A DNA stretch of 64,000 nt, taken from NCBI GenBank assembly GCA_045649885.1, contig JAZRQP010000010.1:4263-68262 (forward strand), read 5' to 3'. Of this stretch, positions 17,074 through 37,383 are shown in pieces (within the stretch, counting starts at the first letter, position 1; every line of letters starts with the position of its first letter). This DNA comes from Faecalimonas sp. (lineage in GTDB: Bacteria > Bacillota > Clostridia > Lachnospirales > Lachnospiraceae). Below the pieces are notes generated by a model, which searched no databases, was not told where the DNA came from, and worked only from the letters and a program-made list of their open reading frames with translations. The translations under genes and the position numbers were made by a program.

Positions 17074-17186
17074 TTTATTGATAAGACTGTTTCTTTATTT
17101 TCAGCGTGTCGATAAAAGTCGAATTTTTTTTATTGTTTTCCTGTTTCTTACAATTTACCATGTTATTATATTGGGAGAGAAATGCT

Positions 17187-18448: not shown

Positions 18449-19210
18449 CTAGAGTCTGACAGATACTCCCTTTTCTCTTAAGTACTGTTTTACTTCTTTT
18501 ACTTCTAATTCTTTAAAATGGAATAGGGATGCTGCCAAAGCCGCATCTGCTTTTCCTTCTGTAAATGCATCATAAAAATGTTCCAGCGTTCCTGCACCAC
18601 CGGATGCAATAACCGGTATGGACACACTCTCTGAAACTTTACGAGTAAGTTCTAAATCATAACCTGCCTTTGTTCCATCGCAATCCATACTGGTAAGCAG
18701 GATTTCACCGGCACCAAGCTCTTCCACCTTTTTTGCCCATTCAATAGCATCAATGCCCATATCAACACGGCCACCATTTTTATAAATATTCCAACCGGTA
18801 CCGTCTGCGCGACGCTTTGCATCAATTGCAACAACCACACATTGGCTACCAAACTTCTCAGCCGCTTCCGAAATCAACTCCGGGCGATTAATGGCAGCTG
18901 AATTCACCGAAATTTTATCTGCACCTTCTCGAAGAAGCGCCTTAAAATCATCGACTGTACGAATCCCGCCTCCTACAGTAAATGGAATAAATACATTTTT
19001 TGCAACTTCCCTTACCATATCTACAACGGTTTCTCTGGCGTCTGAAGATGCCGTAATATCTAAAAATACAATCTCGTCTGCCCCCGCTTCATCATATGCC
19101 TTTGCAATGGCAACCGGGTCACCTGCATCCACAAGGTCCACGAAATTCACACCCTTTACCACGCGTCCCCCATGTACATCCAGACAAGGAATAATTCTTT
19201 TTGTAAACAT
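18449..19210 (-). CDS. hisF: Imidazole glycerol phosphate synthase cyclase subunit
   Basis: [36 protein letters not shown]. Confidence 0.97.
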
Positions 19211-19221
19211 GCCTCTTCCTC

Positions 19222-19830
19222 CTAGTTAAGCTCCACAAAATTTTTCAGGATCTTAAGTCCCACATCACTGCTCTTTTCCGGATGGAATTGACATGCAAAC
19301 ACATTGTCTTTCTCCACCGAGGCATGGATATTAACACTGTAGTCTGTGGTTGCTTTTACAATCTGCTCATCCTCTGCTTTGAGATAATAAGAATGTACAA
19401 AATATACATAGGACTGCTCAGAAAGTCCCTGAAACAATCTTCCTTGATTTTGCAAATGCAAAGAATTCCATCCCATATGCGGAATTTTCAAATCATCTTT
19501 GTCCGGAATGCGAAGAATCTCACCCTTCAAGATTCCAAGACCTGCTACGCCTGGAGTCTCATCGCTGCGTTCAAACAACAATTGAAGTCCAAGACAAATC
19601 CCCAAGAATGGCGTTCCCTTCTCTACCACCTCATATATCACCTTGTCCAATCCAAACTTCTTCAGATTAGCCATGGCATCTCCAAAAGCACCTACACCTG
19701 GTAAAATCACCTTATCTGCCTGCAAAATTTCTTGTGCATCCTTTGTAATCACCACATCTGCACCTAGTTTTTGCAGTGCCTTTTCTACACTTTTTATATT
19801 TCCTGCATCATAATCTATAATTGCAATCAT
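19222..19830 (-). CDS. hisH: Imidazole glycerol phosphate synthase glutaminase subunit (5' end reconstituted by the integrated element)
   Basis: [37 protein letters not shown]. Confidence 0.97.
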
Positions 19831-19831
19831 C
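19807..19831. repeat. att core, copy 1 (25-bp direct repeat = first 8 codons of hisH)
   Basis: ATCATAATCTATAATTGCAATCATC is identical to 35013-35037. Confidence 0.93.
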
Positions 19832-19943
19832 GTCTCAACTCCTTATAAATCAAGCATTTTTCAGATGCTTTCTTACATTTTCAACAGTTACTACTGTCAT
19901 TTCGTTGCATTTCATATCATTTTATTGCATTTCGTTACACTTC

Positions 19944-19985
19944 ATAATTAGTAAACATTTAGTATGCTAAATTTCATACTAATTA
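19944..19985. promoter_or_regulatory. Probable integrase arm-type sites near copy 1 of att
   Basis: TTAGTA at 19948 and 19959 (11-bp period) and inverted at 19977; the same ATAATTAGTAAA 12-mer occurs at 34921. Confidence 0.6.
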
Positions 19986-21220
19986 GCTATTAGTTGATTT
20001 GCAATCGTATTTATCTGTACCAACTGCTCATCACTCGGTCTAGCATCAACATAGTTATCCATTGTAGTAGATATGTTTCCATGCCCTAATATGTATTGTA
20101 ATGTTTTCGGAGGTAAATATTGAAAGTTTGTCGCAAAAGTGTGTCTACAGATATGTGGCTCAAATTTACGAATCGGATTATCAACATTTTCTGCATTAAA
20201 ACGCTTGATACAATTTTGTAGATATTCTTCCACATGACTTCTTACTATTGTCTTCCTGCTTCTTGTTGCAAGAAATACAAAGCCTTCATATTTACTACCT
20301 TTTTCATCATAACATACTGGTTCTATATCGCCCTTAATATAACGCTTTTCAAGAATACGCTCAAAACATTCATATACACCATCTGTCATCGGAATACTGC
20401 GTTCACCATTTGTTGTTTTTGTAGGTAAAACAATATGTGTATGATTGATGCATTGTAATTGCTTATCAACTTTTATCATTCGCTCTTCCATATCAATGTT
20501 ATCAAGAGTAAGACCACACAATTCAGATGCTCTTAATCCAGTCCAAAACAACACATATAGCATATCATAGCAATGTAAACTATGTGCATCTTTTGAACAA
20601 AAATCAAGAAATCGGTTCATATCCTCTACTGAAAGTGCTTCCATCTTTTTACTATCGCTTCTATCTGTTGTAATTCGTCTGAATGGATTTTTTGCAACAT
20701 AATCATAATCTAAAGCATACTCAAAAGTTCTTTTTATAAGACTAATCTGTGTTTGAATAGACGAGCCTCTATACTTCTTTTTCATATCAGCAAGCCATTC
20801 TTCACAATGCTCTGGTCTTATCTTTCCGATTTCCATATATCCTAGTTTATACTGTTGTAATGTATTTACCGTTACATTATATCCAACTTTCGTATTGTGA
20901 GCCAACTTTTTCCTATTATATAGTGAATTAAGATATCTATCCACTACTTCTAATAATGTAAGTTTTGCTCCATCAATATCAATATTGTTTTCAAGTTGTG
21001 CGTTTAATTCAGCCTCCTTCTCACGCAAACTCTTTGATGATTTTTTACCTTTTGGTAATTGGTCTGTCATTTCAAGTCTGTAAGAACTTATAACCCTTTC
21101 TTTCCCCAAGCAGTCTTTATAATGATACTCATATCTTTTAGTTTTGGGATTATAATATTCATTAGGTCTTAATGTTTTTCTCGCAGGCTTGTTCTTTTCT
21201 GATGTTGTTTTATTTGCCAT
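19979..21220 (-). CDS. int: Tn916-like tyrosine integrase
   Basis: N-terminal arm-binding domain (RYEYHYKDCLGKERVISS); catalytic R (TGLRASE), HICRH, LGH, and Y in TTMDNY; reading frame intact. Confidence 0.95.
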   Translation of the reverse strand: MANKTTSEKNKPARKTLRPNEYYNPKTKRYEYHYKDCLGKERVISSYRLEMTDQLPKGKKSSKSLREKEAELNAQLENNIDIDGAKLTLLEVVDRYLNSLYNRKKLAHNTKVGYNVTVNTLQQYKLGYMEIGKIRPEHCEEWLADMKKKYRGSSIQTQISLIKRTFEYALDYDYVAKNPFRRITTDRSDSKKMEALSVEDMNRFLDFCSKDAHSLHCYDMLYVLFWTGLRASELCGLTLDNIDMEERMIKVDKQLQCINHTHIVLPTKTTNGERSIPMTDGVYECFERILEKRYIKGDIEPVCYDEKGSKYEGFVFLATRSRKTIVRSHVEEYLQNCIKRFNAENVDNPIRKFEPHICRHTFATNFQYLPPKTLQYILGHGNISTTMDNYVDARPSDEQLVQINTIANQLIAN

Positions 21221-21303
21221 TTCTCAGCCTCCTTAAATAAGAGTGCCTTGAATGCATATTATAGTAAATTATAACGCATTCCAAACACATTGTCCATTTG
21301 TTT

Positions 21304-21510
21304 CTATATCTGTTCCACTTGTTCAATAAACTCCTCAAATTGCTTCCTTTTAATCTTTATAGTACGTCCCAACATAAGATGATATTTGTTTCCAAAGTCT
21401 TCATGCACTATCTCACGCAACCTACGTTGTCCTATTCCAAATAAATCAGATGCTTCTTTTATATTTAATAAAATTTTATTTTCCAATGCTATTGCTTCTA
21501 TAATAAACAC
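21304..21510 (-). CDS. xis: Excisionase (Tn916 Xis / HTH_17-like)
   Basis: KILLNIKEASDLFGIGQRRLREIV...IKIKRKQFEEFI, next to int. Confidence 0.85.
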   Translation of the reverse strand: MFIIEAIALENKILLNIKEASDLFGIGQRRLREIVHEDFGNKYHLMLGRTIKIKRKQFEEFIEQVEQI

Positions 21511-21643
21511 GCTCCATTCCGTTAATAAACATTCTCTAATAAAAACACTGCATAACTAAGGCAGTGTATGCTTTTCTAATTCATATTCAATTTAATCTTC
21601 ATTATAAAAGGGCAAAGCCTAACACCTTGCCCAAATCAATAAT

Positions 21644-22147
21644 CTATGCCGTAGCAAAAACATCTACTGTGGAACTAACAACTTCTAAAATCTCTGCAAC
21701 ACTTTCTTTATGTTCGTCTGTTAAACAATCCCATTTATCTGCTAAAATCTTCATCACTTCATCAACTGTCGGTAAATCTTTTACACAACGCTCAACTGAT
21801 TGCTTATACATTTTCAGTAATCTTTCATATTCTTCAAATACAACATGCGAATATGCTTCACGTACTTTGTTCTGTTCATCTGACTTCTTGCAGATGTAAA
21901 CTAAATCTTCCATCTTAACCAGTTCTTCACATACAAACTTATCATTTTCAGTTGCTATGATTTTAAGCACAAACACACAACAATTGTCATTATCTGTGTC
22001 TGTTGCCACACCGATTTCCTTTAATATTCCCTCAAAGATACCTTCACGTGTGACGTAAATAATCTCTTCATTTTGATGAATGCAAACTTTGTGTTCTTCC
22101 TCTTTCTGTGCCACACAATAATCTACACCTATTTCTCTAAATCTCAT
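21644..22147 (-). CDS. Hypothetical protein
   Basis: 167-aa ORF with AAGGAGG RBS; no recognised motif. Confidence 0.7.
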   Translation of the reverse strand: MRFREIGVDYCVAQKEEEHKVCIHQNEEIIYVTREGIFEGILKEIGVATDTDNDNCCVFVLKIIATENDKFVCEELVKMEDLVYICKKSDEQNKVREAYSHVVFEEYERLLKMYKQSVERCVKDLPTVDEVMKILADKWDCLTDEHKESVAEILEVVSSTVDVFATA

Positions 22148-22267
22148 TATTTAAAATCCTCCTTATTTTCATTTTTTAATTCCTGATTGTCCAATTGTAA
22201 TCGGTCAACCATTTTCTGTAATACTTGAATTTTTCTACTTTCTTTCATAACTATTTCTCCAATACAA

Positions 22268-22298
22268 AAGGACAAGAGAGTGTTAGTCCCTTGTCCTT
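22268..22298. terminator. Intrinsic terminator after the tape-measure fragment
   Basis: AAGGACAAG...CTTGTCCTT stem flanked by A/T runs. Confidence 0.6.
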
Positions 22299-22305
22299 GT
22301 TTTGT

Positions 22306-23577
22306 TTACCACTTATATTTACTCAAATCACCTTTACCATCGGTAATCTCCAAGATGATATTTTCAAAACGTTTACTGTGTTGTAAGTCAGTAATGAAAT
22401 CATCAGCATTCTTGACATTTGGAAATGTCATGTTTTCAAAATGAATTTCTACGTTTTTGTTACTATTGTTATTAGGTACGAAATTCGGCAATTTAGCGTA
22501 ATTGCCAATAGCGTCAAACATGTTAGTTTTTGCAACTACACTCAAAGCATCTTTTAACGCAATAAAGTTTTCCGTATCTTTTGCATTAAGCATAAGTTCT
22601 GGTTTAGATTTAGAACCATGTACCATAGCAAGACCTGTGTAATCAACTTTACCTCCTGTTGCATATGCTTTTACGTCTGATTTTTTAAACCAACCTGTTG
22701 TACCACTAGAGAGTGATTGGTGGCGAACCTTCCAGAAATTGCCCTTCTGTCCAATAATTACATAATAAGGATTTTCATCATAGAATTGATGATATCCTTT
22801 TGTGCCATTTGCCTGACGATATATCAAAGCATTGCCAGCATTAATCCTGCTTCCAACAGTAATTACATTATCATTAGAAGATGAATTGCTTGTTGTTGAT
22901 GGTTTACTTACAGTTGGTGTAACTGTAGTAGATGGAGTCACAGATGTTTGTGTATCTTTAACATTGCTATCTGCAACTGCGTTACTGTCACTTACCATTT
23001 TTGCAACGAGATTTTTAATATCAGACAATGTGCTATTTACTGTAGTAATTCCATCGCCAACAATATTTTTACCAGTTCCATCCCAAATACTTTGCATTTG
23101 TTCGGACAATACATAACCCACATCCCCAGTAACGTCTTTTAACGTATCTGAAATTGTTGAACCATTGCTATTCGTACTATCAATAGCACTTTGTATCAGA
23201 CCAGTAATATCATCCAATCTCTGATTTTGCCACTCAGCAGCCGAATCCATTAAACTTGTTAATAATTTTTCTTCCTCTCTGAGTTGTTGTTCTCTCTCAG
23301 TTTCAGAAAGAGTTTCCTTTGCATCCTCTAGTTCGACTTGATATTTTTGAATGAGCATCTTTGCTTCTTCTGAGTTATCATTCCCATAACTATTCAAGAT
23401 ATTTTGAAGTCGTGAAATCTCTTCTACTTGGTCTTTTACATTCTTCTGATAGTCAAATAAACTATTCGACGAATTTTGCAACTCAAGTCTTTTGTCAATT
23501 AAGGAGTAACGCCAATTACCCTTACACATTGAAGCCAAAGTGTCGCCAAACACATGTGGCTTCTTTTTTATTACCAC
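22306..23577 (-). pseudogene. Orphan C-terminal fragment of a large-prophage tail tape-measure protein (coiled coil + SH3-like + YATGG motif)
   Basis: LFDYQKNVKDQVEEI...SEEAKMLIQ...NQRLDDI...VGYVLS coiled coil; SH3b-like GWFKKSDVK; AYATGGKVDYTGLAMVHGSKSKPELML; no RBS at the GTG start; no other tail genes. Confidence 0.65.
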
Positions 23578-23608
23578 AAAGAAAAGCTAATTTTCTTTCT
23601 GTTGCAAT

Positions 23609-23643
23609 AAAAAAACTACTGTACGTTTACACACGTCAGTAGT
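23609..23643 (-). terminator. Leader intrinsic terminator downstream of the CIRCE promoter
   Basis: Minus strand ACTACTG-ACGT-GTGTAA-ACGT-A-CAGTAGT followed by a U-tract. Confidence 0.75.
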
Positions 23644-23738
23644 TGTTTCAGAACATTATTCAATTGTCAAAGGTTCTGCACTTCCTTGTGTGCAAATCAA
23701 TATAGATGTCTTATACCAAATTCTCTTGATATAAGCAT

Positions 23739-23801
23739 ATGTTAACAGACTTTATATCGTTTGTCAATAATATTTTAGCACTCTTTCGTCGAGAGTGCTA
23801 A
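23739..23801 (-). promoter_or_regulatory. Perfect CIRCE (HrcA operator) plus sigmaA promoter inside the mobile element
   Basis: TTAGCACTC-N9-GAGTGCTAA at 23775-23801; 7 nt; TTGACA (23762-23767); 17 nt; TAACAT (23739-23744). Confidence 0.9.
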
Positions 23802-23809
23802 TAATAAAA

Positions 23810-24716
23810 TTATTCCGTTTGATATTTTATTTCATGTTCAATTGCATATTTCTCTGCATATGACCCAGCTTCACATTTAATAGTAAAATTCTCATCGTCT
23901 GTATTATCAAATGCACTTGATGATATAAATGCATTTTCATCTATACTTGTTACGCTACTAGGAATATATATTTCTGTCAGTCCTGAGAATAAAAATGCAC
24001 CACTACCAATCTTTGTTAGTGTATTAGGTAGATTTACTGTTTTTAAGTTTTTGCAAGAGCGAAATGCACAGTTTCCAATATATTCATATCCTTCTGGTAT
24101 AGTTACTGTTTTTAATTCTTTGTGTAAAGCAAAAACTCCGTTGACATCTGATGTAACCCCTAATATCTTTTTCCCTTCAAAATATTTAGGAAGTATCATC
24201 TCTTCATATGTTCCGCTATATCCAGATATATAACAAGTATTATTGGCTGAATATTGAAAAACTAGATATTTCAAATCAACATTTGTTTCATTATCTTTTA
24301 ATTCTGGCTCAACAGTTGGACTGTTCTGTTGCGTTTTTTGACTAGGTGTAGTAGTCGTGGGCTGTTTTGTTACCTCGTTAGTAGATGGTTTCTCTTGTTT
24401 TGATGTTGCTTGTTGTTCAGATTTTATTTCAGATTCTTTAATTGAATTTTCTTCATTGTCTATAACTTCATTTTCAAGATTGGAAATATCTGTATCACTT
24501 TCATTATCTTTTAACAACTCATCATACTCTTTTATTTGTTCTTCAAGGCTTGCAATACGTGATAACAATTCTTTTTCTTTTTTTATTATGAATATTATTG
24601 CTATGTATAAGAATACCTCCAACTGTTGCCAATGAAAGCAAAAAAGCGACAGATACGATAATACTTTTATGATGGGCTTTAATGAAGTTTTTTATTATGC
24701 CTGTTATATTTTTCAT
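23810..24716 (-). pseudogene. Membrane-anchored BspA-type leucine-rich-repeat protein, frameshifted in an A7 tract at 24578-24584
   Basis: ATG 24716 with GGAG RBS gives MKNITG...TM helix; removing one A restores the frame into KKEKELLSRIAS...; LRR_5 motifs VTIPEGYEYIGNCAF, LPNTLTKIGSGAF, IPSSVTSIDENAF. Confidence 0.8.
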
Positions 24717-24743
24717 GGTACTTGCTCTCCTATGTGTTTTGAA

Positions 24744-25298
24744 TCATATCTTCTTATTAACTATATCTAACACTCGTTTATGATATTCTAGGTCTTCCTC
24801 TTCTGCATCATATACAGCACATCTATCAACATATTTATCAAATATAGAATAATCATAATTACAATCTGTCCATGACACAAGAAAAATCTTTGAGATTTGC
24901 TTGCGTATAAACAAATCCTCAACACAATCTATTTTTACGTCTCTTCTTGCTATCGCATCAATTGGATATAGAATAGCAGCATCAAATTGATGGCTTGTTT
25001 TAGACCAACTATTCTTAGTATTGAAACTATCAGCTTCATAAATATTTTTCCCTATTCTAAACTTCTCTCCCGCCTTTGGCTTCTTTGATACATATTTACC
25101 CAAGAAACTATCACCTGTTATATTCTGCATAGCATTAATTCGGAATAATATCTTTGAGTTTGGCATACATCGGTTTAGCATTGCCATCGCTGCAATATGT
25201 TTTTCGTATTGATGTGTTCCAGTAATGAACATACATTTTTCATCAGATGCAAGAAATTCCTCAATAGACTTTATAAGTTGTTCTTTATTGTTTGCCAT
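24744..25298 (-). CDS. Hypothetical protein, possible degenerate P-loop NTPase fold
   Basis: hhhTGTHQYEKH sits at a Walker-A-like position and AAILYPID at a Walker-B-like position; AAGG RBS. Confidence 0.6.
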   Translation of the reverse strand: MANNKEQLIKSIEEFLASDEKCMFITGTHQYEKHIAAMAMLNRCMPNSKILFRINAMQNITGDSFLGKYVSKKPKAGEKFRIGKNIYEADSFNTKNSWSKTSHQFDAAILYPIDAIARRDVKIDCVEDLFIRKQISKIFLVSWTDCNYDYSIFDKYVDRCAVYDAEEEDLEYHKRVLDIVNKKI

Positions 25299-25325
25299 AA
25301 AACGTATTTCCTTTCTGTAATGTAA

Positions 25326-26288
25326 TTAATCCAAACCATACAAAGCATCAGAATTAAACTGATAATCGCAATAAGTCATAAGATTTCTTTTAGCAATCCA
25401 ACCTTCGATTTCTTCCCCTTCAGAATCAATATAAGTAACTTTATCCCATAACTTTATAGATTCAACCAGAGTTACTTGCTCTCCATATGGAATTTGCATT
25501 GTTACAGATGAATAACTTGATGGTTCTACATATAATTTAGCAGAATCCACTTTAATAAAATAAATATCATCATTACCTTGCATAGAAACTATTGCGCTTT
25601 GTATTTGTGGTAACATCATATCATTTGTAACCTGCGCTCCACTTAATATCGTCCAAATGATTGCAATTGTATAAACTATATATGCTAAAGCTGGATGGTC
25701 TCTTAGAAATGCATTGACCTTTTCTTCCGGCAATACGTTTTCCGATATGTCCCTCAAGTCAAATGTCTCGGACACTTCGTATTCAAACTGTTCTATGTCT
25801 TCTAAAACATCTTCTCTTGTAAAATCCGTTCCATCCAACATGGCATCAAATTCTTCTCTTGGAATTGAAGTTATATGACTGAAAATTCCTTGGTATGATG
25901 AAACAATATCAGAAATGGTCTGTTGGAAATTTTGCATAGATTCTGTCATACCCATAGATGCAGATAAATTCTTTGTAATGTTTTCTACATATCTGGAGTA
26001 ATCATATGTTTTTAATATTGATTGAAAATTAGAACCAAGAACATCAGCAAATGTTTTGGTATATGCTGAATAATCTATAAGTTCCATACAATCCATATAT
26101 CCCTGCATTGTTTTAGAAAGTGATGTCGAGAAAATTTCAACCATATTTTTGGTAGATATGTTCTCGAAAATACCCTGATAGGATTCAAGTATAGATGTAA
26201 TACCTGATAAATTAGATTTAAAATCTTCTCCCACAAGTGTATCCACAATTATTTTGTTGTTAATTACTTCATCCTTTATATTACTCAT
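25326..26288 (-). CDS. SH3-domain membrane protein
   Basis: C-terminal SH3_3 pattern (AKLYVEPSSYSSVTMQIPYGEQVTLVE...WDKV...EGWIAKRNL); TM LAYIVYTIAIIWTIL; N-terminal helical pseudo-repeats (SYQGIF twice). Confidence 0.75.
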   Translation of the reverse strand: MSNIKDEVINNKIIVDTLVGEDFKSNLSGITSILESYQGIFENISTKNMVEIFSTSLSKTMQGYMDCMELIDYSAYTKTFADVLGSNFQSILKTYDYSRYVENITKNLSASMGMTESMQNFQQTISDIVSSYQGIFSHITSIPREEFDAMLDGTDFTREDVLEDIEQFEYEVSETFDLRDISENVLPEEKVNAFLRDHPALAYIVYTIAIIWTILSGAQVTNDMMLPQIQSAIVSMQGNDDIYFIKVDSAKLYVEPSSYSSVTMQIPYGEQVTLVESIKLWDKVTYIDSEGEEIEGWIAKRNLMTYCDYQFNSDALYGLD

Positions 26289-26564
26289 TGTTTTCCTCTC
26301 AATAATTCCGTAATGTTTTTATATGGATAATTATATTGTATCTGTTCAATTTAAGCAAATAATATATGTCACACACACTACTGATTAAAAATATTACCGA
26401 ACCGAACATATTTTTTGTCCCAAAATCACCTGAACCTCTTGAAAAACAAGGCATTATAGCACTTTAACAAAGTTTCTTTTAAAAACTCTACAGAATGCAA
26501 GAAACAAAATAGTTTACAATCATCTTTTATTCTATCACCGAACACATAACCGAACATCTAACAT

Positions 26565-26768
26565 TTGATGTTTGAACTATTACAGAAAGTTCCAGAGCGA
26601 TTCATTCCACAATCTTTAATGGAGTGGTTAGACAAATATCTCACCAAACGCATCCAACTGTTAAATCAACAGAACATAAAAAACACATGGCGAAATATCT
26701 ACCTTGAAAATGTCGTTAATGACATTAATAGCCGGACACAAAAAGAAGCACCTTCAGATGATGATTAA
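26565..26768 (+). CDS. Small hypothetical protein
   Basis: 67-aa ORF convergent on the Fic gene; weak RBS. Confidence 0.45.
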   Translation: MMFELLQKVPERFIPQSLMEWLDKYLTKRIQLLNQQNIKNTWRNIYLENVVNDINSRTQKEAPSDDD

Positions 26769-26789
26769 TTCATCCGTTGGTGCTTGATT

Positions 26790-27419
26790 TTATCTTGCTA
26801 TTCGTTTAATACAGAACTCTTTCATAAATGTAATGATTTTTTCATCCATTGCCGTTTCATAAAATTCGAGTAATAGTCCTTTAAACTCCTCTAATTTTTC
26901 TATTGGAATTTGGAAGATTCCGATATCATTTTCTACCAATACTTTATTTGCTATAAGCTGCGCCACACGTTTATTTCCATCAATAAACATTTGTGTTCTT
27001 GCTACATAACAGAAATATTTTAATGCCTTGAATTCGATGTCTTCTATCTGTTCAATCTTTTCTAGGTTTTCAATAATGATTCCTGTATGTGGTATTTCAG
27101 GCTCCCATGACGTACCACCTATTTGTACTGGGATTGTTCTGATTTCACCTGCATAACTAAATAACAAGTCTCCGACAACTTTATTATATTCTCGCAACAA
27201 CATTAGATTGTTTCCATAATCGAGATTATCTAATAAAAATTGCCATGCTCTTTTCATATTTATTACGAACAAAACTTCTTCCGTTTTTGTCGTTGTAGGT
27301 GCATTTGCAAGAATTGCTTCTGTTTTGGGAAATGTCGTTCCAAGACCTTCCAAATTCGCACTCTTCCAAATACTATCAACTAGAAGACGTTTTGCCATCT
27401 CAATTGCTGAATCACGCAT
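26790..27419 (-). CDS. Fic/Doc family protein with His-to-Gln active-site variant
   Basis: GEIRTIPVQIGG, QMFIDGNKR (canonical HPFxDGNGR/HPFVDGNKR). Confidence 0.85.
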   Translation of the reverse strand: MRDSAIEMAKRLLVDSIWKSANLEGLGTTFPKTEAILANAPTTTKTEEVLFVINMKRAWQFLLDNLDYGNNLMLLREYNKVVGDLLFSYAGEIRTIPVQIGGTSWEPEIPHTGIIIENLEKIEQIEDIEFKALKYFCYVARTQMFIDGNKRVAQLIANKVLVENDIGIFQIPIEKLEEFKGLLLEFYETAMDEKIITFMKEFCIKRIAR

Positions 27420-27449
27420 TATCTTTTATGCTCCCTTCTTCTTATTTTA

Positions 27450-27863
27450 TTATTTTTCTTCCATTGGTACTCTTTGAGGTAACTCTTCTCTCGTGCAAGT
27501 ATGCTCTTTTGTGCTAAGTATCTCGCATAATTTATCTGCATTTTCCCACGTATTAGGTATTACTTCCATAATATCACTTGGTTGACATTTCAACCAAATA
27601 CAGAGTGATTCAATGGATTTTGTATCAATAGAATTTTCTCTAGTCCTTTTTTCTAATAACCTCGTTTCAGGGTTTTTGTAATCGTATTCTTCTAAAAGAC
27701 CTGTTCCCATCTTCAATTTTCTCAAGGTTTCTTGTCCTATTATCTTTTGTTCTCTAATATGCGTTTGATTCTTCCCTTGTTCTTTCATGAGGTCAAATAA
27801 TTTTCCATAATAAATCATTGTATGCCTTTCTGGCTTGTTTCTTTCATCCTTATATATCGCCAA
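27450..27863 (-). CDS. Cro/C1-type HTH regulator with insertion
   Basis: YGKLFDLMKEQGKNQTHIR...IGQETLRKLK...IDTKSIESLCIWLKCQPSDIME (HTH_26-like). Confidence 0.8.
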   Translation of the reverse strand: MAIYKDERNKPERHTMIYYGKLFDLMKEQGKNQTHIREQKIIGQETLRKLKMGTGLLEEYDYKNPETRLLEKRTRENSIDTKSIESLCIWLKCQPSDIMEVIPNTWENADKLCEILSTKEHTCTREELPQRVPMEEK

Positions 27864-27958
27864 CTATATAATGACACAATTATTATACTAAAGTTTTTCC
27901 TTTTTTCAAATAGTTAATTTGTATCGGCAGAAAACTTTCCACCGATACACAAACCAAA

Positions 27959-28561
27959 TTATATTTCAAACAATTCCTTTAAAGTTCTAGGCTGATACTC
28001 TCTATGTCCCAATGCTTCAAAATGTTTCCGGGTCTGCTTGTTTGTCAATCCCTTTATTCCACCAGACAAGATATAATCTATTTTTAAAGATTCATCCTTA
28101 TTTTGTCTCCTGCGAATAAGTCTATCCTGCATCATCTTATAGATTTTATATCCTTTGGCTGCATCTAAATTATAAAACTCCATCGCATGATAAATGTCTG
28201 TGATTTCTCGTTCGATTTCTAGTAATTCCAATTCAAGAACTTTCTTCCGTTTGACAAGTAAATCAAAATCCATTTCCAAAGAAGCCATGATTTCATCCAC
28301 ATCTATATCAAGAGTAGCATCTGACAAATCATTTTTAACCTCAATTGTACTTATGATTTTCCATTCTCCATCCTTTAGTAAATTATCTGCAAGTTTATTA
28401 TATATGGTATTGATTTGATTAAATTTCAACTTGACCGCCTTTTTAAAACTGCCAACAATAATATTTTCCTTTGTTTCATTGTCACAGCCCACATAACGCA
28501 TTCCATCAGTAATTAAATAATGTGTTGCACACCCCATAACAGCTCCGTCCTTCCTACGCAA
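27959..28561 (-). CDS. Phage-type hypothetical protein
   Basis: EIEREITDIYHAMEF.NLDAAKGYKIYKMMQDRLIRRRQNKDE resembles Firmicute prophage ORFs (recalled, not searched). Confidence 0.6.
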   Translation of the reverse strand: MRRKDGAVMGCATHYLITDGMRYVGCDNETKENIIVGSFKKAVKLKFNQINTIYNKLADNLLKDGEWKIISTIEVKNDLSDATLDIDVDEIMASLEMDFDLLVKRKKVLELELLEIEREITDIYHAMEFYNLDAAKGYKIYKMMQDRLIRRRQNKDESLKIDYILSGGIKGLTNKQTRKHFEALGHREYQPRTLKELFEI

Positions 28562-29099
28562 TATATTTTTCTAATGTTGCTTTGATTCGGTTGATTTCCC
28601 TGTAATAAGTTGAAGCAGGAATATCCAATATAAGAAAAATTTCCGTATTATTAAAGCCTTCCATTTTCATTTTAGAAATAACTCGTTGAACCTCGGTTAA
28701 TTTTCCAAGTAATTCATTAATCCGTTCTTTTTCCAAATATTCTGATTCAACGGACTTTCCACCAACGCAATTATAAAGATTTTCCATTTCTGAATGTTCT
28801 ACATCCAAACTTATAACTGTTTCCGTTGGCTTTCGTTTCAATGCGTTTTCCATTTTTCGATTGTTCTCCAACTCAGTTCTCATATATTGCCAAACTGTAA
28901 AATACATATCAGCTTGCTTCGTGTATCTAGTTTTGCGACAATACACCTGAATTCCTTTTAGGAATCCCATTACTGCGACACCGTAAAAGTTATCAATGCT
29001 ATATCCATGCTGATATAAAAAGGCGTAGACGATATTATGATTATTGGCAGCCATTTCTTTTTCTTCCGTTGTAAGTGGTTTTAATTTATATTTTTCCAT
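28554..29099 (-). CDS. Sigma-70 family (ECF-like) sigma factor of the element
   Basis: NHNIVYAFL...FYGVAVMGFLKGIQ (region 2); LGKLTEVQRVISKMKMEGFNNTEI (region 4). Confidence 0.75.
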   Translation of the reverse strand: MEKYKLKPLTTEEKEMAANNHNIVYAFLYQHGYSIDNFYGVAVMGFLKGIQVYCRKTRYTKQADMYFTVWQYMRTELENNRKMENALKRKPTETVISLDVEHSEMENLYNCVGGKSVESEYLEKERINELLGKLTEVQRVISKMKMEGFNNTEIFLILDIPASTYYREINRIKATLEKYIA

Positions 29100-29159
29100 T
29101 TGTTTATGCTCCTTTGATTCCGTTGGGGAATTGCCGGTTAAAGCAACTCCCCAATTAAT

Positions 29160-29558
29160 TTAGAAAAGATTTTCAATAAGTTTATTTAATACTAATTTCT
29201 TCAAGTATCTGCTATCTTCACCATTGATTTCTATATCAAATGGGTCAAAGAATTCTGAATGTATTTCCTCGCCTGATTCATCATCAATCCATAAAATAAT
29301 TGAAACTGAATATCTGACTTTACAATTTTCGATATTGATGTGTAATGCAATATCTCTATAGAGAACAAAGTCCTCTAAATTAATTTCTGGATGCTTCAAC
29401 AATAATGCTTGATTAAACATTTTTTCACATTCTTCATATTTCCTGCGAATGTTGTCGGACATTTTCTCTATTGGCAAATATAAGCCAATATCCGTATCAC
29501 TTAATAAAATGTCATTGATTGCTACTTTTCCGATGTTTTCGATTTTTTTGTTTTTCAT
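29160..29558 (-). CDS. Hypothetical protein
   Basis: 132-aa ORF with AGGTAGG RBS, followed by a GGGGA hairpin terminator (~29117-29146). Confidence 0.65.
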   Translation of the reverse strand: MKNKKIENIGKVAINDILLSDTDIGLYLPIEKMSDNIRRKYEECEKMFNQALLLKHPEINLEDFVLYRDIALHINIENCKVRYSVSIILWIDDESGEEIHSEFFDPFDIEINGEDSRYLKKLVLNKLIENLF

Positions 29559-29664
29559 AGGTTGATTACCTACCTTTCTTTTTGATTTTGTTGTTTTGGC
29601 ATTTCTGCCGAATGGGTGCGATTAAACTGAATAATCCACGGCTAAACCGTCACACCCTGATTGA

Positions 29665-29820
29665 TTACTTACGATTCTTTTTAAGTAGTTTTGAATCATC
29701 AAAATATTTCATTTCCCCACCTTGATAATTTGTTTTAGGTGTAAGAATTTGGCTTCGTCCTATCTTTTGAACAACTCCGTTCTTGGTTACTGTCGCAAAT
29801 TGATTAATTGTTTTCTGCAT
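29665..29820 (-). CDS. Unannotated 51-aa basic small protein
   Basis: Hand translation MQKTINQFATVTKNGVVQKIGRSQILTPKTNYQGGEMKYFDDSKLLKKNRK; AGGAG RBS upstream; co-oriented in the operon. Confidence 0.6.
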   Translation of the reverse strand: MQKTINQFATVTKNGVVQKIGRSQILTPKTNYQGGEMKYFDDSKLLKKNRK

Positions 29821-29868
29821 TATGTACACTCTCCTTTTTTATTGGGGAGATTGCTCTCCCCATTCCTA

Positions 29869-30186
29869 TTATTTAATTCGTAATACTCCGAATGTGGATT
29901 CTGTTCTGACACTTGCAAACTGTTCCATACTAAGCAATTTTTTTACTGCTTCTTTATTTACGTTTTCTCTTGTCTGTACTGAATACGTTGCTTTGTAATC
30001 TGTGCCGATATACTGGCGAATTGGCTTGCCGTTCTTGTCGGTTGCCTCACATTCTTTAGTTTCATTCAGAAATTCGATGATTGCGTTTTCTGCTTCTCTG
30101 ATTTCTGCTTCTGTCTCTTCCTTTAATGCTTTGAGACTTCTTAACTCTGCTACTTTCTTTTCAAGTTCTGATTTTGTCATACACAT
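29869..30186 (-). CDS. Hypothetical coiled-coil protein, first gene of the leftward operon
   Basis: AGGAGG RBS; heptad N-terminus; promoter TTTACA-17-TATGAT upstream. Confidence 0.7.
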   Translation of the reverse strand: MCMTKSELEKKVAELRSLKALKEETEAEIREAENAIIEFLNETKECEATDKNGKPIRQYIGTDYKATYSVQTRENVNKEAVKKLLSMEQFASVRTESTFGVLRIK

Positions 30187-30248
30187 AATGACTACCTCCT
30201 ATTTAATTAATGATTTTGTGTCGGTCTGTTTCGTTTGACCTTGTAGTT

Positions 30249-30366
30249 ATCATACACTAATGTTAGTGTTTTGTAAATTGACGTTTTCACTAATATTTGT
30301 GTATTTAATTTCACTAATATTTGTGTATTTTTACCAATTGATAATTCACCAGTATTAGTGTATAAT
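30249..30366. promoter_or_regulatory. Divergent sigmaA promoters with a shared CACTAAT operator array
   Basis: Minus TTTACA(30272-77)-17-TATGAT(30249-54); plus TTGATA(30338-43)-17-TATAAT(30361-66); 22-bp direct repeat at 30285-30306 and 30309-30330; palindrome ACACTAA-TG-TTAGTGT at 30254-30269. Confidence 0.8.
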
Positions 30367-30414
30367 AAACTCAACAACAAAATAATAAATCAATTTTTAG
30401 GAGGTATCATTACT

Positions 30415-30951
30415 ATGATGAAAATTTACTTAACAAACTTAGGAAAATATAACGAAGGCGAATTACTGGGCGAATGGGTAAAGTTGCCAGCAACAGAAGA
30501 AGAACTAGAAGCAGTTTTTGAACGTATCAAAATATCAGACGAACCAGACGAAAACGGCAACTATTATGAAGAATATTTTATAACAGACTATGAGACAGAC
30601 ATTGACGGCTTGAAAATTGGGGAATATGACAACCTAGAAGAACTTAATGAACTGGCTGAAACATTGGAAGGCATGGACGAAAACGAACTAGAAGTTGTTG
30701 GAGTAATGTTAGAAGACGGATGCGAATTTGATGAAGCAATCAAAAAGACAGAAAACGGCGATTATAGAATCTATTATGATTGTAGCAATATGACGGATGT
30801 AGCATATGAAGTTATAGAAGAATCTGGATTTTTAAATAATGTATCTGATATAGTAGCGCGTTATTTTGATTATGAAGCATACGGCAGAGATTTAGATATC
30901 GAAGGCAAGTTTTACATGACAGATAGCGGAAACTGTATAGAAATTTTCTAA
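30415..30951 (+). CDS. ardA: Antirestriction protein ArdA (DNA mimic); start reassigned to MMKIY
   Basis: KIYLTNLGKYNEGELLGEWVKLP, EEYFITDYE, YFDYEAYGRDL; very acidic; AGGAGG RBS. Confidence 0.93.
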   Translation: MMKIYLTNLGKYNEGELLGEWVKLPATEEELEAVFERIKISDEPDENGNYYEEYFITDYETDIDGLKIGEYDNLEELNELAETLEGMDENELEVVGVMLEDGCEFDEAIKKTENGDYRIYYDCSNMTDVAYEVIEESGFLNNVSDIVARYFDYEAYGRDLDIEGKFYMTDSGNCIEIF

Positions 30952-30970
30952 TATAGAAAAGTAAAAAAAT

Positions 30971-31001
30971 AAGGTTGGGAGCGTTAAACTCTCAACCTTT
31001 T
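30971..31001 (+). terminator. ardA terminator
   Basis: AAGGTTGGGAG-CGTTAAA-CTCTCAACCTT plus T-tract. Confidence 0.8.
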
Positions 31002-31303
31002 ATTATGTCTTTTCTTGGGTGTAATTCTATACGTTTCTAGGGGTTAAAATCACTTTTAGATGGTCTAGCATAGAATTGCTAGACTGTGAGCAAATAAACG
31101 GAAATTTGCTTGATTTTGTGCTTTGTGTGGGTGTGCCGGTGTTGTCCTAAAGTGGCGGGTATTTTACATTTTGACGAATGTTCTGTTTCTCCAAATACCC
31201 TATAGGTGATGTTTCTACACACTCCGTAGTGATTTTGAACTCCGAAGTTAAATATATGGTGATAATTAAAATATTTCTAATCGCTAAAAAATATTTTATG
31301 TTA

Positions 31304-32287
31304 CTAATTACCTGAAAAAGTCACTTTATAATTTCCTTCTTCAAAACCATACTCCGTAAATGTTATTTGATATGACCTTCCTTTCTCTAAACTTGTTTTA
31401 ACAAACTGTCCACCACCACTACATTTCTTTCCATCTTTAACAAACAAATACTCTCCACTAACATTTTTTGGACATCCTGCCACCTGATTGATTATTTTAA
31501 CCGTAATTGTAACAGTCACTTTAAATTTACCGGACATATAATCTTCTTTTTGTATTGCAACATTTTCTATAATCCATTCATTGTATAATGTTTTACTACT
31601 ACTAGAACGAGTTCTATAGTATATTCCTTCGGAACCATCTAAGTGAAATTCGGTCACTACTGAATTTTCGGCAGCGGAACGTTTTGGTGTATTTTCTTGT
31701 GCAATTAAGACAATATTGCACTCAGAACAATGTTTCCCTTCTGTTAATCCTGTTGATGAGTAGGTAGCTGCTACGGCTTTATCAATTACCTCTGTGTGTC
31801 CTTTTGCTGATACATAATCACCTTTATATGAATCTCCACAAGTACAACTATATGTGGTGTAGCCTTGCTCTGTACAAGTAGGATTCGTTTTTGATTTGGA
31901 ATACGAATGTTTATGTTTTTCAGTTTCTTTTTTGTTTTCAGAAGAAGTTGTTTTATTTTCCTTTGATGAAATTGAATTTGTACCACTTGATTTGTCAGTT
32001 TGCTTTTTCTCTTCAGTAGTTTTATTTGATTCCTCTTTAGTTGTAGGCTTTGGGGTAGATGTAGTTCCTGTTGCTGATTCAGAAGCATTATTTTCTACCA
32101 CAACATTCTCTTCTGCTTTTGTATCTTCTCCAATAGTGTCATTGGCATTACTCTCTGCTATTTCTTCGTCAGTCATGGTTGATTCAAGATTCTCATTATT
32201 ATCTACTTTTTCATCCTTCTTACCACATCCGGCACAAGTTCCAAATACTAAAATCATAACTAATAAAATACAAATCGTTCTTTTCAT
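31304..32287 (-). CDS. Lipoprotein with Ser/Thr/Lys-rich linker and PTCTEQGYTTYxC-type repeats
   Basis: MKRTICILLVMILVFGTCAGC lipobox; HSYSKSKTNPTCTEQGYTTYSC and ATYSSTGLTEGKHCSEC repeats. Confidence 0.75.
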   Translation of the reverse strand: MKRTICILLVMILVFGTCAGCGKKDEKVDNNENLESTMTDEEIAESNANDTIGEDTKAEENVVVENNASESATGTTSTPKPTTKEESNKTTEEKKQTDKSSGTNSISSKENKTTSSENKKETEKHKHSYSKSKTNPTCTEQGYTTYSCTCGDSYKGDYVSAKGHTEVIDKAVAATYSSTGLTEGKHCSECNIVLIAQENTPKRSAAENSVVTEFHLDGSEGIYYRTRSSSSKTLYNEWIIENVAIQKEDYMSGKFKVTVTITVKIINQVAGCPKNVSGEYLFVKDGKKCSGGGQFVKTSLEKGRSYQITFTEYGFEEGNYKVTFSGN

Positions 32288-32349
32288 TCCTATAGTCCTC
32301 CTCATAAGTAATTATTTCTTTCCATATTCAGTTGATATCGTTTCTTCTC

Positions 32350-32853
32350 TTATTTTCTCTTAATAGCTTCTAGCAATTTAATTATTTCTGCAAATCCTAA
32401 GAACATTGTTCCAGCAATGATGCATGCAGCCCAATATACAAATGCTATAGCAAATGAAAATTCCGTATCTGTATAAGTATAATATGTACCACGAACAACT
32501 TCCACATTACCAAAGGCTATACCGGCAATAAAACCACCAATATAGATTATCCATGCAATTACAGTTAATGCCGTGGCAATTCCATTTTCAATATCTTTAT
32601 TAATAGGCTTATTGCTATCTGACTTACAACTTTCCTTCACTATCTCATATTCTTCATCCGTAATATCAATAGGTGCTTTCCGATAATACTTTCCTTCCAA
32701 ATTATCATACCAAGAATATTCATCGCTATAGGTGTCTGAATATTCTTTTTCGTATAATCCCTCTCGTATCAACAAATCACTTTTCTCTTTTTCAGATAAT
32801 TCCTTTTGAAGTTTCTCTTTGTGGTCTAAGTATTGCTTTAGTTTGTCATTCAT
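32350..32853 (-). CDS. Hypothetical membrane protein (2 C-terminal TM helices)
   Basis: Start MNDK after AAGGAG; hydrophobic segments IATALTVIAWIIYIGG and FAIAFVYWAACII. Confidence 0.7.
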   Translation of the reverse strand: MNDKLKQYLDHKEKLQKELSEKEKSDLLIREGLYEKEYSDTYSDEYSWYDNLEGKYYRKAPIDITDEEYEIVKESCKSDSNKPINKDIENGIATALTVIAWIIYIGGFIAGIAFGNVEVVRGTYYTYTDTEFSFAIAFVYWAACIIAGTMFLGFAEIIKLLEAIKRK

Positions 32854-33085
32854 TTGTACGCTTCTCCTTCTCATTCCTTAACATTGAGTCCCTCTTTTCA
32901 CATTATAGTTATTTTCTTAACAACAGTCGAGAATAAGACCATATGTGGCATTTTTACACCATCGTATATAGACGGGGATATGTTTACATCTGACAGTTTA
33001 AGTACCTATATACAGCAAGGTACTTTCTCAGAAAAGGCAGAAAATAAGGCATACCAGATAACTTAATATCCGATATGCCTATAAC

Positions 33086-34174
33086 CTAATATGGTTTCAC
33101 TTCCACTTTCAAAAACCTTTCATAAATATATTCAGGAATATTCTCTTTATATTTAGCAACTACCAACAATATATCGGCTTGTTTCATAACCTTATATTCT
33201 GCAAACGCTTCTTCTGCTGTATCCCATTCAGAAAGAGGTATTGTTCTTTCTGCACCTGTAAATGTGATTTCTGCATAATATTTCTTACTCTTTCCATTGT
33301 ATCTAACTCCAAGTGGTAACGTGTTCTCTGGTGTCTGTCCTTCTTCGTAGTGTTTCTTACTATTAGCAAGAAGTATGTTTAATCCTTTTGGTAATAAGCA
33401 ACAGAAATCAGGAGTATACATACCAGAACCATCACCAAATAAATCCTTGTCTACATCCATCTCTTCATCGCCACATTCATAATAGTGTTCTAAATACCAT
33501 TTCACAAATTCTCTTGGATTGTCAATCCAACCTTGCCACATAGTAGATTTATCATAACAAGAACGTACAGTATCATCATCTACTGTGTCACCACATCTTT
33601 TAAGAATTCCGTTATAAACCCTATATGCATGTAAACTTGCTTTGTTCTCATATTCAATATATTCTTGTTCAAGATTTAATTCTTGCCATGCAACCTTGCC
33701 AGTCTTTAAATCCTTATAATCCCTTGCGCTGACATATAGAAGATTCTTATACCAATTATTTGTATCATCTCCGTCCTTATGCCATATTTTATGTCTGCCA
33801 TAATATGACACAAGAAAAGTTTCTGCAACCAATTCTTCTGGTGTAGTCTCTCTCTTATATCGGCTACCATCGACCTTATCAATTTCAAAAACTGTATAAT
33901 GGCATTTACCTTCTTTATGAGAATAAAAAGTGTTTTTGTCTTTACGATTCAGATTATTTACACATCTTCCATAATTAGAAATCCAGTAATTCTCTGTTCC
34001 ATCCACACGGATAAAGACCTCAAAAGCATTTTTCAGTTTATACTTAATTGGATATTCTACTGGTATACATTTATCCTTTGAAATTTCAATTAGTTCTTTT
34101 TGCTCATCTAATATGTATTGTACCTTTCCTGTACACTCATTTTCCTCACTTGTAATAATGTTAATATCATTCAT
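33086..34174 (-). CDS. NUMOD4 - HNH - second HNH-like - AP2 domain nuclease
   Basis: VDGTENYWISNYGRC (NUMOD4); WHKDGDDTNNWYKNL (HNH_3-like); YNGILKRC...DVDKD...YTPDFCCLLP; GVRYNGKSKKYYAEI...WDTAEEAFAEY (AP2). Confidence 0.8.
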   Translation of the reverse strand: MNDINIITSEENECTGKVQYILDEQKELIEISKDKCIPVEYPIKYKLKNAFEVFIRVDGTENYWISNYGRCVNNLNRKDKNTFYSHKEGKCHYTVFEIDKVDGSRYKRETTPEELVAETFLVSYYGRHKIWHKDGDDTNNWYKNLLYVSARDYKDLKTGKVAWQELNLEQEYIEYENKASLHAYRVYNGILKRCGDTVDDDTVRSCYDKSTMWQGWIDNPREFVKWYLEHYYECGDEEMDVDKDLFGDGSGMYTPDFCCLLPKGLNILLANSKKHYEEGQTPENTLPLGVRYNGKSKKYYAEITFTGAERTIPLSEWDTAEEAFAEYKVMKQADILLVVAKYKENIPEYIYERFLKVEVKPY

Positions 34175-34288
34175 TCGTCCTCCTTTTATTTACCTAGAAT
34201 ATAAAATAATCCTACTGTTGACTTTCTTTTACTTCTTATCAACTAAGAACTAAACCTACACTTCTGAGGTAGTAGTATCACCTTATAA

Positions 34289-34690
34289 TTAATTTTCGCT
34301 ATGTGTAGCAGTTGTCTCATTTAATGTTTTTTCTGTCAGACGTTTGCACGCTTCTTTGAGATACTTACCAGCACTTGCTTTAAAAATGTAATGTGCCGGA
34401 TGAACATATATTTCTCTACTATATAGATTAATATGTTTTCTCTCAATCCTTAATGATGGCTCAATCTTAAAATATCCATCCATTATCGCAGTATCACCAT
34501 CTTCAATAATATCCACAAGTACATCCATTAGTGCATTAACAACTTTTTCAATAATCTCTTTCGTATATCTAAGTTTATACCTCTTTGAATATGGATGTCC
34601 TTTTCCATTACCACCGATAACAAATCTTTCATCTTTTAGTTTTTTTCTAACACGGTCTTTAATTTCAATCTTGTTTATTTTCTGATTCAT
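34289..34690 (-). CDS. HU/IHF-like DNA-binding protein
   Basis: IIEKVVNALMDVLVDIIEDGDTAIMDGYFKIEPSLRIERK...FKASAGKYLKEA is the HU fold; start MNQK. Confidence 0.75.
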   Translation of the reverse strand: MNQKINKIEIKDRVRKKLKDERFVIGGNGKGHPYSKRYKLRYTKEIIEKVVNALMDVLVDIIEDGDTAIMDGYFKIEPSLRIERKHINLYSREIYVHPAHYIFKASAGKYLKEACKRLTEKTLNETTATHSEN

Positions 34691-34979
34691 TCTCTCACTT
34701 CCTTTCACCATGAAACTGCTATTTGATTATGTTTATTGTGCTATATTAGGCTCTCACACGCACCAGAATCGTCATATTTCGATTTTCTGATTGTCTGTGT
34801 GAATTTCTTCGTCTAATAAATTCAGGCACTTAAAAAGCCCACTATCAATCATATTCCTATAACTGATAATGGACTTTAGTAAATGTCCAAATATTTAATT
34901 TTATACACATTCAAGGCATTATAATTAGTAAATAATTAGTATAATCAGAACTTTATATTATTTTGTACCGTGTAATGCT

Positions 34980-35036
34980 TTATTTTACAGTAGTCTTTCC
35001 GTTGTAATGGCAATCATAATCTATAATTGCAATCAT
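34980..35036 (-). pseudogene. Orphaned original hisH start (MIAIIDYD then out-of-gene CHYNGKTTVK*)
   Basis: ATG 10 nt after the HK stop codon; first 8 codons identical to hisH. Confidence 0.85.
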
Positions 35037-35037
35037 C
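35013..35037. repeat. att core, copy 2
   Basis: Identical to 19807-19831. Confidence 0.93.
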
Positions 35038-37205: not shown

Positions 37206-37383
37206 GAAACTTACACCTCGTCCAGAACTTATAATGTTATCCTAGCAAAGATTTATGTAAAAATTGTGTTTCCATTATACTATTTTTTCAAGCACAAATA
37301 AAGGGGACATTTACAGGCTTGAACAAAAGCTTCTACAAAAAAAGATGCGATAGCAAAACTACCGCACCTTTCCTTGCAATCTC

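Follow-up and report, generated by a model that had tools for sequence, protein, structure and literature searches.

What becomes of a biosynthetic gene when 15.2 kb of DNA is inserted into its 5' end? The question is raised by hisH, which encodes the glutamine amidotransferase subunit of imidazole glycerol phosphate (IGP) synthase, in a 64,000-nucleotide stretch of Faecalimonas sp. DNA (contig JAZRQP010000010.1; hereafter, the window). An earlier interpretation made from the letters of the window (the sequence-only reading) had proposed that a mobile element integrated at the hisH start codon and replaced the gene's translational and transcriptional control. The best overall explanation of our results is that a phage-derived element was inserted by its own tyrosine integrase (Int) at the 5' end of hisH and rebuilt the gene, which would now be transcribed by read-through from int. 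We give this explanation as a whole a probability of about 0.75.

Insertion of a 15.2-kb element into the 5' end of hisH

The window contains a perfect 25-bp direct repeat (ATCATAATCTATAATTGCAATCATC) at positions 19807-19831 and 35013-35037, as the sequence-only reading had noticed, and these are the only two copies in the 2.39-Mb genome. By simple arithmetic, a repeat this long would be expected by chance about 1e-7 times within 19 kb. On the minus strand, which also encodes hisH, the repeat reads as a G (the base before the start codon) followed by hisH codons 1-8 (ATG ATT GCA ATT ATA GAT TAT GAT). The copy at the start of the working hisH forms the core of the right attachment site (attR), and the second copy, identified by the repeat search, forms the core of the left attachment site (attL). 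The 15.2 kb between them (19832-35012) has a GC content of about 0.32, as compared to about 0.40 in the flanks.

We joined the two flanks computationally and matched the resulting empty site against 60 relatives. More than 20 same-genus genomes align continuously across the joined flanks, and in these genomes the gene for a sensor histidine kinase and hisH are adjacent. In the three nearest species (96, 93, and 90% identity), the uninterrupted site reads ...AAG TAG GGGGCAAAAG ATGATTGC(A/G)ATTATAGATTATGAT GCAGGAAAT...; the constructed site is identical to that of the two nearest species and differs from the third by one base, which lies inside the 25 bp. Because relatives carry the uninterrupted site, we conclude that the adjacency of the kinase gene and hisH is ancestral in this part of the genus and that the 15.2 kb was inserted later. 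By the sequence-only reading's own standard, the lack of an empty site in relatives would have spoken against it, and same-genus relatives do have one. This locus has both direct repeats with target-gene sequence at its two ends and an uninterrupted counterpart in relatives. On this comparative evidence, a tyrosine integrase inserted the element site-specifically at the 5' end of hisH.

At the empty site, hisH begins 10 nt past the stop codon of the kinase gene, which leaves no space for a promoter. In the window, the kinase gene (35047..36528, minus strand; HAMP, HisKA, and HATPase_c domains) still ends with a TAG (35047-35049) 10 nt before the original ATG. What follows is an 18-codon stub (34980..35036, minus strand) made of the host's start of hisH and the left end of the element, just as had been proposed, and similar stubs are found in five other genomes. 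The working hisH (19222..19830, minus strand) is intact: it encodes 202 amino acids, has a full-length match to Pfam GATase (9.5e-27), and gives the single tblastn match in the genome. It is followed after 11 nt by hisF, which encodes the cyclase subunit (18449..19210, minus strand; PF00977, 1.1e-87) and is the sole strong hisF in the genome, and then after 8 nt by the uracil-DNA glycosylase gene ung (17760..18440, minus strand; PF03167), which from the spacing of the open reading frames (ORFs) is the last gene of the unit. The proposed uncoupling of hisH-hisF-ung from the two-component operon holds in a physical sense, as the two are separated and the native 10-nt spacing from the kinase gene is lost. 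Since hisH and hisF are single-copy, the rebuilt hisH encodes the cell's sole IGP-synthase amidotransferase.

To locate the crossover, we relied on a search of other genomes with a degenerate pattern for the start of hisH. Five of them have a stub and a working hisH on one contig, at distances of 9.2, 12.4, 37.4, 39.7, and 59.7 kb, and a sixth has the stub and the working gene on two separate contigs. In the window's host, the element and host copies are identical through codon 8. In the other hosts, the stub and the gene have several mismatches, and the identity on the right-hand side always stops after codon 8. In one genome (G061), the identity between attL and attR is exactly GATTATGAT. 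These limits imply that strand exchange occurs within GATTATGAT, that is, in codons 6-8 (Asp-Tyr-Asp; 19807-19815 in the attR core of the window), and therefore that the working hisH owes its Shine-Dalgarno site and codons 1-5 to the element. The sequence-only reading had placed this point at the start codon, which is incorrect. Its claim that the element replaces the upstream control stands for the Shine-Dalgarno site and is too narrow otherwise, since codons 1-5 are supplied as well.

The Shine-Dalgarno site from the element is AAGGAG (19839..19844, minus strand), 8 nt before the hisH ATG; both this site and the position of hisH downstream of a co-oriented int, 148 nt away, had been recognized correctly from the sequence. 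All 19 of the attR arms that we compared retain a similar site 6-9 nt before the ATG, despite divergent surroundings between sub-clades. A hand count across codons 1-8 gives about nine synonymous differences between element and host and a single replacement (Gly3Ala, in Blautia BIOML-A1), and the N-terminus of HisH in the window's host (MIAIIDYD) is unaltered by the insertion. Furthermore, four loci in which int is truncated or internally deleted still hold full-length hisH and hisF. The retained Shine-Dalgarno site, the nearly synonymous first codons, and these remnants together indicate selection for expression of the rebuilt hisH. The gene stays intact because the element comes with a ribosome-binding site and first codons of its own.

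Two other features of these junctions deserve mention. In four of six elements (the window's and those at loci L034, L038, and L040), the position at which the stub peptide stops is conserved (18 amino acids, ...TVK* or ...VVK*), which probably reflects left-arm DNA that is kept (the motifs CCGTTGTAATGG and CCGTGTAATGC) rather than a functional peptide. And in a Coprococcus metagenome-assembled genome (MAG), when the stub (L033; G064:C3:36750-36832) is compared with hisH (L042), the identity reaches 20 nt upstream of the ATG and includes an element-type Shine-Dalgarno site (ACTTGAAAGGACAGAGACAG); this host site may already have carried a leader from an earlier element. A gene for a YoeB-like toxin lies about 75 nt upstream at the same locus (L033).

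The integrase, its target, and the nature of the element

The element's int gene (19979..21220, minus strand) encodes an intact, 413-amino-acid tyrosine integrase of the Tn916/Tn1549 family. The match to the catalytic domain PF00589 covers positions 3-169 of 172 (E=9.7e-27; signature R..HxxR..H..Y), and in an alignment with the integrase of Tn1549 (6EN0, E=3e-37), the motifs TGLRxSELCGL, HxxRHTF, and GH...Y are present, so the catalytic motifs are intact. Residues 7-75 match the arm-binding domain of the type found at the N-terminus of Tn916 Int (PF02920, E=8.5e-20), and this domain also matches PDB entries 1B69 and 2BB8. Directly upstream of int is a gene for a 68-amino-acid, Tn916-type excisionase, Xis (21304..21510, minus strand; PF09035, 1.3e-12).

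The attR arm, from the stop codon of int to hisH (19832..19978, minus strand), contains two GYAAYGRAATG motifs (19898-19908 and 19928-19938) and a 25-nt repeat (19940-19964) that recurs as a direct repeat in the left arm (TACTAAWTRTTTACTAATTATRAWG; 34917..34941, minus strand). We found these two matches where 0 were expected by chance. The left-arm copy is a candidate binding site for Int or Xis, and more generally, the repeat and the GYAAYGRAATG motifs are candidate arm-type sites. From its int, xis, and arms, we infer that the window's element may still be able to excise.

The sequence-only reading had raised the question of whether homologous integrases share the target. In a scan of one genome per species, we found 17 loci in other genera of Lachnospiraceae with integrases that are 64-94% identical to that of the window. 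In every one of them (17 of 17), hisH-hisF lies about 150 nt past int in the same orientation. The carriers represent about a dozen other gut genera: the 17 loci are from Jutongia, Coprococcus, Blautia, Marvinbryantia, Butyribacter, Jingyaoa, Lachnospira, Butyrivibrio, Eubacterium sp. MSJ-13, and further Lachnospiraceae. Carriers that have been cultured include Lachnospira hominis NSJ-43, Blautia sp. BIOML-A1 (with a 9.2-kb element), Eubacterium sp. MSJ-13, and Jingyaoa shaoxingensis NSJ-46 (with a remnant whose int is truncated). IMG/VR includes 21 viral contigs with this integrase, and those that reach past int show the same arm and the start of hisH. Two other IMG/VR contigs (L077 and L078) encode integrases that are 69% identical; they have a different arm, rich in AGTAATGA repeats, and hisH is absent downstream. 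Target specificity may switch within the clade at about this level of identity. A close integrase was present in just 3 of 401 genus representatives of the Lachnospiraceae, so the family is widespread by genus and rare per genome.

Complete elements of the family range from 9 to 60 kb. In Lachnospira hominis NSJ-43, the 59.7-kb relative amounts to a full prophage, which encodes a portal, head protease, tape measure, endolysin, and DNA polymerase. The 37-kb element of G061 (L048) encodes a tape measure, a PhuZ/TubZ-like tubulin, a ClpX-like ATPase, and other phage families; among the ten ORFs that we scanned, no portal or terminase was recognized. Given this combination, the G061 element is an unusual phage-like element. 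All of these relatives have xis and int in common with the window's element, and subsets of them share early-region genes, namely those for a 362-amino-acid HNH/NUMOD-like protein, a 105-amino-acid protein, an extracytoplasmic function (ECF)-like sigma factor, and a 200-amino-acid protein. Judged by gene content, the hisH-targeting family is phage-derived and is not made up of ICEs (integrative and conjugative elements), and the integrase clade is that of temperate phages of Lachnospiraceae and of shortened forms derived from them.

We scanned the body of the window's element (21644..34711) with Pfam, PHROGs, and NCBIfam. It encodes a 423-amino-acid ORF with a weak match to an orphan, tape-measure-like C-terminus (22306-23577), a BspA-type leucine-rich repeat protein (23810-24622), an SH3 protein (25326-26288), a Fic protein (26790-27419), a helix-turn-helix protein (27450-27863), an ECF-like sigma factor (28554-29099), ArdA (30358-30951, plus strand), the 362-amino-acid HNH/NUMOD-like protein that is common to relatives (33086-34174), and an HU-like protein (34289-34711). 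ArdA is the sole conjugation-associated gene: no ORF of at least 50 amino acids in the window's element had a match in these databases to a relaxase, a coupling protein, or a type IV secretion system (T4SS). Nor did the scans find terminase, portal, capsid, or tail genes in the element, apart from the weak match to a tape-measure C-terminus. We considered whether this 423-amino-acid ORF is a homolog of the tape measures of the related elements and rejected the idea, as no homology was found. Since virion genes are absent here and present in a relative, we regard the window's copy as a derivative, either a decayed prophage or something satellite-like. It is best read, from these scans, as a shortened prophage derivative and is possibly a satellite. 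In a comparison with phage-inducible chromosomal islands, the 15-kb size and int fit, and terS, capsid-redirecting genes, and primase-rep genes were not recognized in the window's element.

Elsewhere in the same genome, contig C51 encodes homologs of proteins from the larger hisH-targeting elements (at about 8.4-10 kb, 59-60.5 kb, and 124.8-125.4 kb): the 1039/1090-amino-acid phrog_8308 proteins, tape-measure-like proteins, and HNH/NUMOD-like proteins. These genes could be from a second phage-like element or a helper. Genes for other steps of histidine synthesis (hisZ-hisG-hisD-hisB and a hisA/hisI-like gene) are on another contig. On the far side of the insertion, the kinase gene overlaps by 4 nt with a gene for an OmpR-type response regulator (36525..37205, minus strand; identified by a domain match), which has promoter-like sites (37234-37291) and a terminator (37333-37379) upstream. 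Just downstream of hisHF-ung, at 17106-17633 on the plus strand, is a 175-amino-acid ORF that is essentially the C-terminal DNA-binding domain of Spo0A (E=3e-30) without the receiver domain.

Expression of the rebuilt hisH

If the insertion parted hisH from its native operon, where does its mRNA come from? In other genera, the genes upstream of the stubs are unrelated, and most of them end at most about 75 nt from the ATG of the stub. Because such varied upstream genes end so close, hisH appears to be commonly without a promoter of its own. In the window, a promoter-like site lies upstream of int, between xis and int (21268..21296, minus strand; TGGACA-17-TATAAT, an 11/12 match), with an imperfect palindrome around its -10 box, and it is conserved in more than 30 relatives. 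Upstream of xis is a strong intrinsic terminator (21610..21632, minus strand; folding free energy of -13.6 kcal/mol, with a U-tract), which would insulate xis-int-hisH from transcription of the cargo genes. Between int and hisH, we found no terminator-like hairpin in any of 15 spacers (the window's and those of 14 relatives), and the same scan picked up both control terminators. The conserved int promoter, the terminator before xis, and the lack of one before hisH make read-through from int the simplest source of hisH mRNA. As far as these signals can tell, it is the likeliest source, at somewhat better than even odds, and it is plausible that hisH depends on transcription of the element.

The proposed mechanism would run as follows. 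The phage attachment site (attP) would carry a copy of the hisH 5' end, comprising the Shine-Dalgarno site and codons 1-8, and Int would exchange strands within GATTATGAT, in hisH codons 6-8. Integration turns the native start of hisH, which keeps its translational coupling to the kinase gene, into the 18-codon stub, and the working hisH-hisF-ung is rebuilt with the element's Shine-Dalgarno site and first codons. HisH would then be translated from the element's site, mainly from int (or xis-int) mRNA that starts at the promoter at 21268-21296 and reads through, with the terminator at 21610-21632 excluding the rest of the element's transcription and nothing terminating between int and hisH. A broader scenario is possible, and we hold it only tentatively: a clade of temperate phages might carry a portable "hisH 5' cassette" in attP, such that lysogeny shifts the sole IGP-synthase operon to the operator-flanked int promoter and co-regulates histidine synthesis with integration and excision, and decay of the phage would then fix its leader as the expression signal for hisH, as in the int-broken remnants.

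The regions around these sites have some further features. In the region 21236-21296, an imperfect palindrome, GTGYYTKGAATG ... CATTCAAGGCAC, lies on either side of the int promoter, and more than 30 relatives conserve it. Its half-site, GCCTTGAATG, is repeated in the same orientation beside a TATAAA box at the left end of the element (34908-34917, in the region 34900-34926). It is possible that int and the leftmost operon share one regulator. Separately, just before the Shine-Dalgarno site is a potential RNA hairpin, AAGCAT-N7-ATGCTT, which folds in the window (with a z-score of only -1.4) and has one compensatory change in L016. We rejected it as a family-wide structure or terminator, as RNAalifold found no consensus pair across 17 members.

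Several observations weigh against our explanation. Searches of IMG/VR and of JGI metagenome contigs for the attP junction and for left-arm patterns gave 0 matches, so no excised form was seen. The Pfam, PHROGs, and NCBIfam scans found no recognizable replication, packaging, or transfer genes in the window's element, which may no longer be mobile. The genome is a MAG in 153 contigs, and therefore, strain-level polymorphism of the insertion is not visible. As for transcription, conservation of the int promoter does not prove that it feeds hisH, because int itself would keep the promoter, and the palindrome around its -10 box hints at possible repression of this promoter in an integrated element. 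Also, there is a weak promoter-like sequence inside the attR arm (19856-19884, TTGAAA-17-AAAAAT) as a possible alternative.

This last point leads to a different account of expression, in which an outward promoter in the last ~90 nt of the attR arm drives hisH-hisF-ung independently of int and of the element's regulation. The site matches the consensus at 9 of 12 positions, and its distance from hisH suits a leader of about 20 nt. The proximal arm is retained in all four of the int-broken remnants, and one of these (L029) lacks the int promoter, yet its hisH and hisF are intact; in L029, however, read-through could come from a different upstream gene that has the same orientation and a promoter of its own. 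Promoter-like matches are no more common than in shuffled sequence (13 found, 11.8 expected), and the -35 and -10 boxes are not conserved across the family, with unrelated sequence at this position in L020-L022 and L025. We rejected a conserved promoter in the attR arm because the site is not conserved across sub-clades, and we consider an arm promoter in the window to be rather unlikely. Read-through from int also has to be weighed against a switch like that of the Streptococcus pyogenes island SpyCI, which is integrated at the 5' end of mutL (as cited in PMC4701971). Under such a switch, hisH-hisF-ung would be silent or strongly reduced as long as the element stays integrated, and its excision would restore the kinase-hisH operon. 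Integration in the 5' end does part hisH from its native promoter, and int, xis, and both arms are intact. But 19 of 19 relatives have a suitably spaced Shine-Dalgarno site, the element's first codons diverge almost solely at synonymous positions, no terminator stops read-through from int, and the remnants with broken int, which cannot excise, keep full-length hisH and hisF. Because the Shine-Dalgarno site, the first codons, and hisHF in the remnants are preserved, we think that a silent state is very unlikely.

A more radical alternative is that there is no site-specific element at all and that the repeat arose by target duplication during transposition or by an error in assembling the MAG. 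The assembly is indeed fragmented, with an estimated contamination of 3.8%, but both junctions lie on a single 93-kb contig, and isolates as well as MAGs from independent studies share this architecture. The recombinase belongs to the tyrosine integrases and is not a transposase, and the differences between attL and attR in other hosts fit an exchange between attP and the bacterial attachment site attB, not a duplication. We give this alternative almost no credence, and integration by Int with rebuilding of hisH remains our explanation.

Significance and comparison with known systems

These results define the attachment site that a hisH-specific clade of Tn916/Tn1549-type integrases uses in abundant gut Lachnospiraceae, namely codons 6-8 of hisH. 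Knowing this site helps to delimit prophages and islands in the genomes of these bacteria, and the integrase is a possible tool for site-specific integration in bacteria that are hard to engineer. In this family, selection has also clearly acted on an element to restore the 5' end of an essential biosynthetic gene, and the decayed copies show that a phage-derived leader can become fixed. If our proposal for transcription is correct, then lysogeny rewires the control of histidine biosynthesis and links the state of a prophage to the metabolism of a gut commensal.

The best matches among solved structures are the integrases of Tn916 and Tn1549 (6EN0, 6EMY, and 1B69), which likewise combine an N-terminal arm-binding domain with a catalytic domain, and as in those systems, a Tn916-type Xis is encoded directly upstream. 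The sequence match is limited: the match to Tn1549 (E=3e-37) is over the catalytic region only (residues 92-393), and that to the N-terminal domain of Tn916 has E ~1e-6. Tn916 and Tn1549 use AT-rich sites with low specificity and have heterologous coupling sequences, whereas the hisH clade uses one conserved core, GATTATGAT, inside hisH at 17 of 17 loci.

In the lambda-type layout, no gene lies between int and the attachment site, and int is read in the direction of that site, so transcripts can exit into the flanking host DNA. The xis-int unit of the window's element reads outward across the attachment site in the same way. In lambda, the flanking host genes are independent of the int transcript, while the downstream host operon here has no other evident promoter.

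Integration at a gene's conserved 5' end has been described in streptococci. Among 73 streptococcal ICEs with tyrosine integrases, 7 are integrated in such 5' ends (of ftsK, rbgA, and ebfC) with the N-terminus preserved (Ambroset et al. 2016, PMC4701971). For two ICEs in rbgA and one in ebfC, the upstream sequence, including the promoter, is wholly replaced by that of the element (PMC4701971). The hisH elements are similar in that a site-specific tyrosine integrase aims at a housekeeping gene's conserved 5' end. They differ in that the target is biosynthetic and is not the first gene of its operon, and in that the carriers are phage-derived elements of Lachnospiraceae, with no relaxase or T4SS found in the window's element. 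Also unlike the streptococcal ICEs, this integrase clade has a Tn916-type N-terminal domain and was strictly specific to hisH in the 17 loci examined. SpyCI is reported to silence mutL and the genes downstream until it excises (Nguyen and McShan 2014, as cited in PMC4701971). As far as that citation describes it, SpyCI is, like the window's element, a small phage-like island with int and xis that sits, within a multi-gene unit, at the 5' end of the gene affected first; unlike SpyCI, the window's element supplies a Shine-Dalgarno site and synonymous first codons, which argues for continued expression. Because our literature search gave no report of hisH as an attachment site for a phage or an ICE, we regard these elements as following a known, rare strategy, with a target and an integrase clade that are both new. 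The hisH case is not a new kind of system, and it is one for which the comparative evidence is unusually clear.

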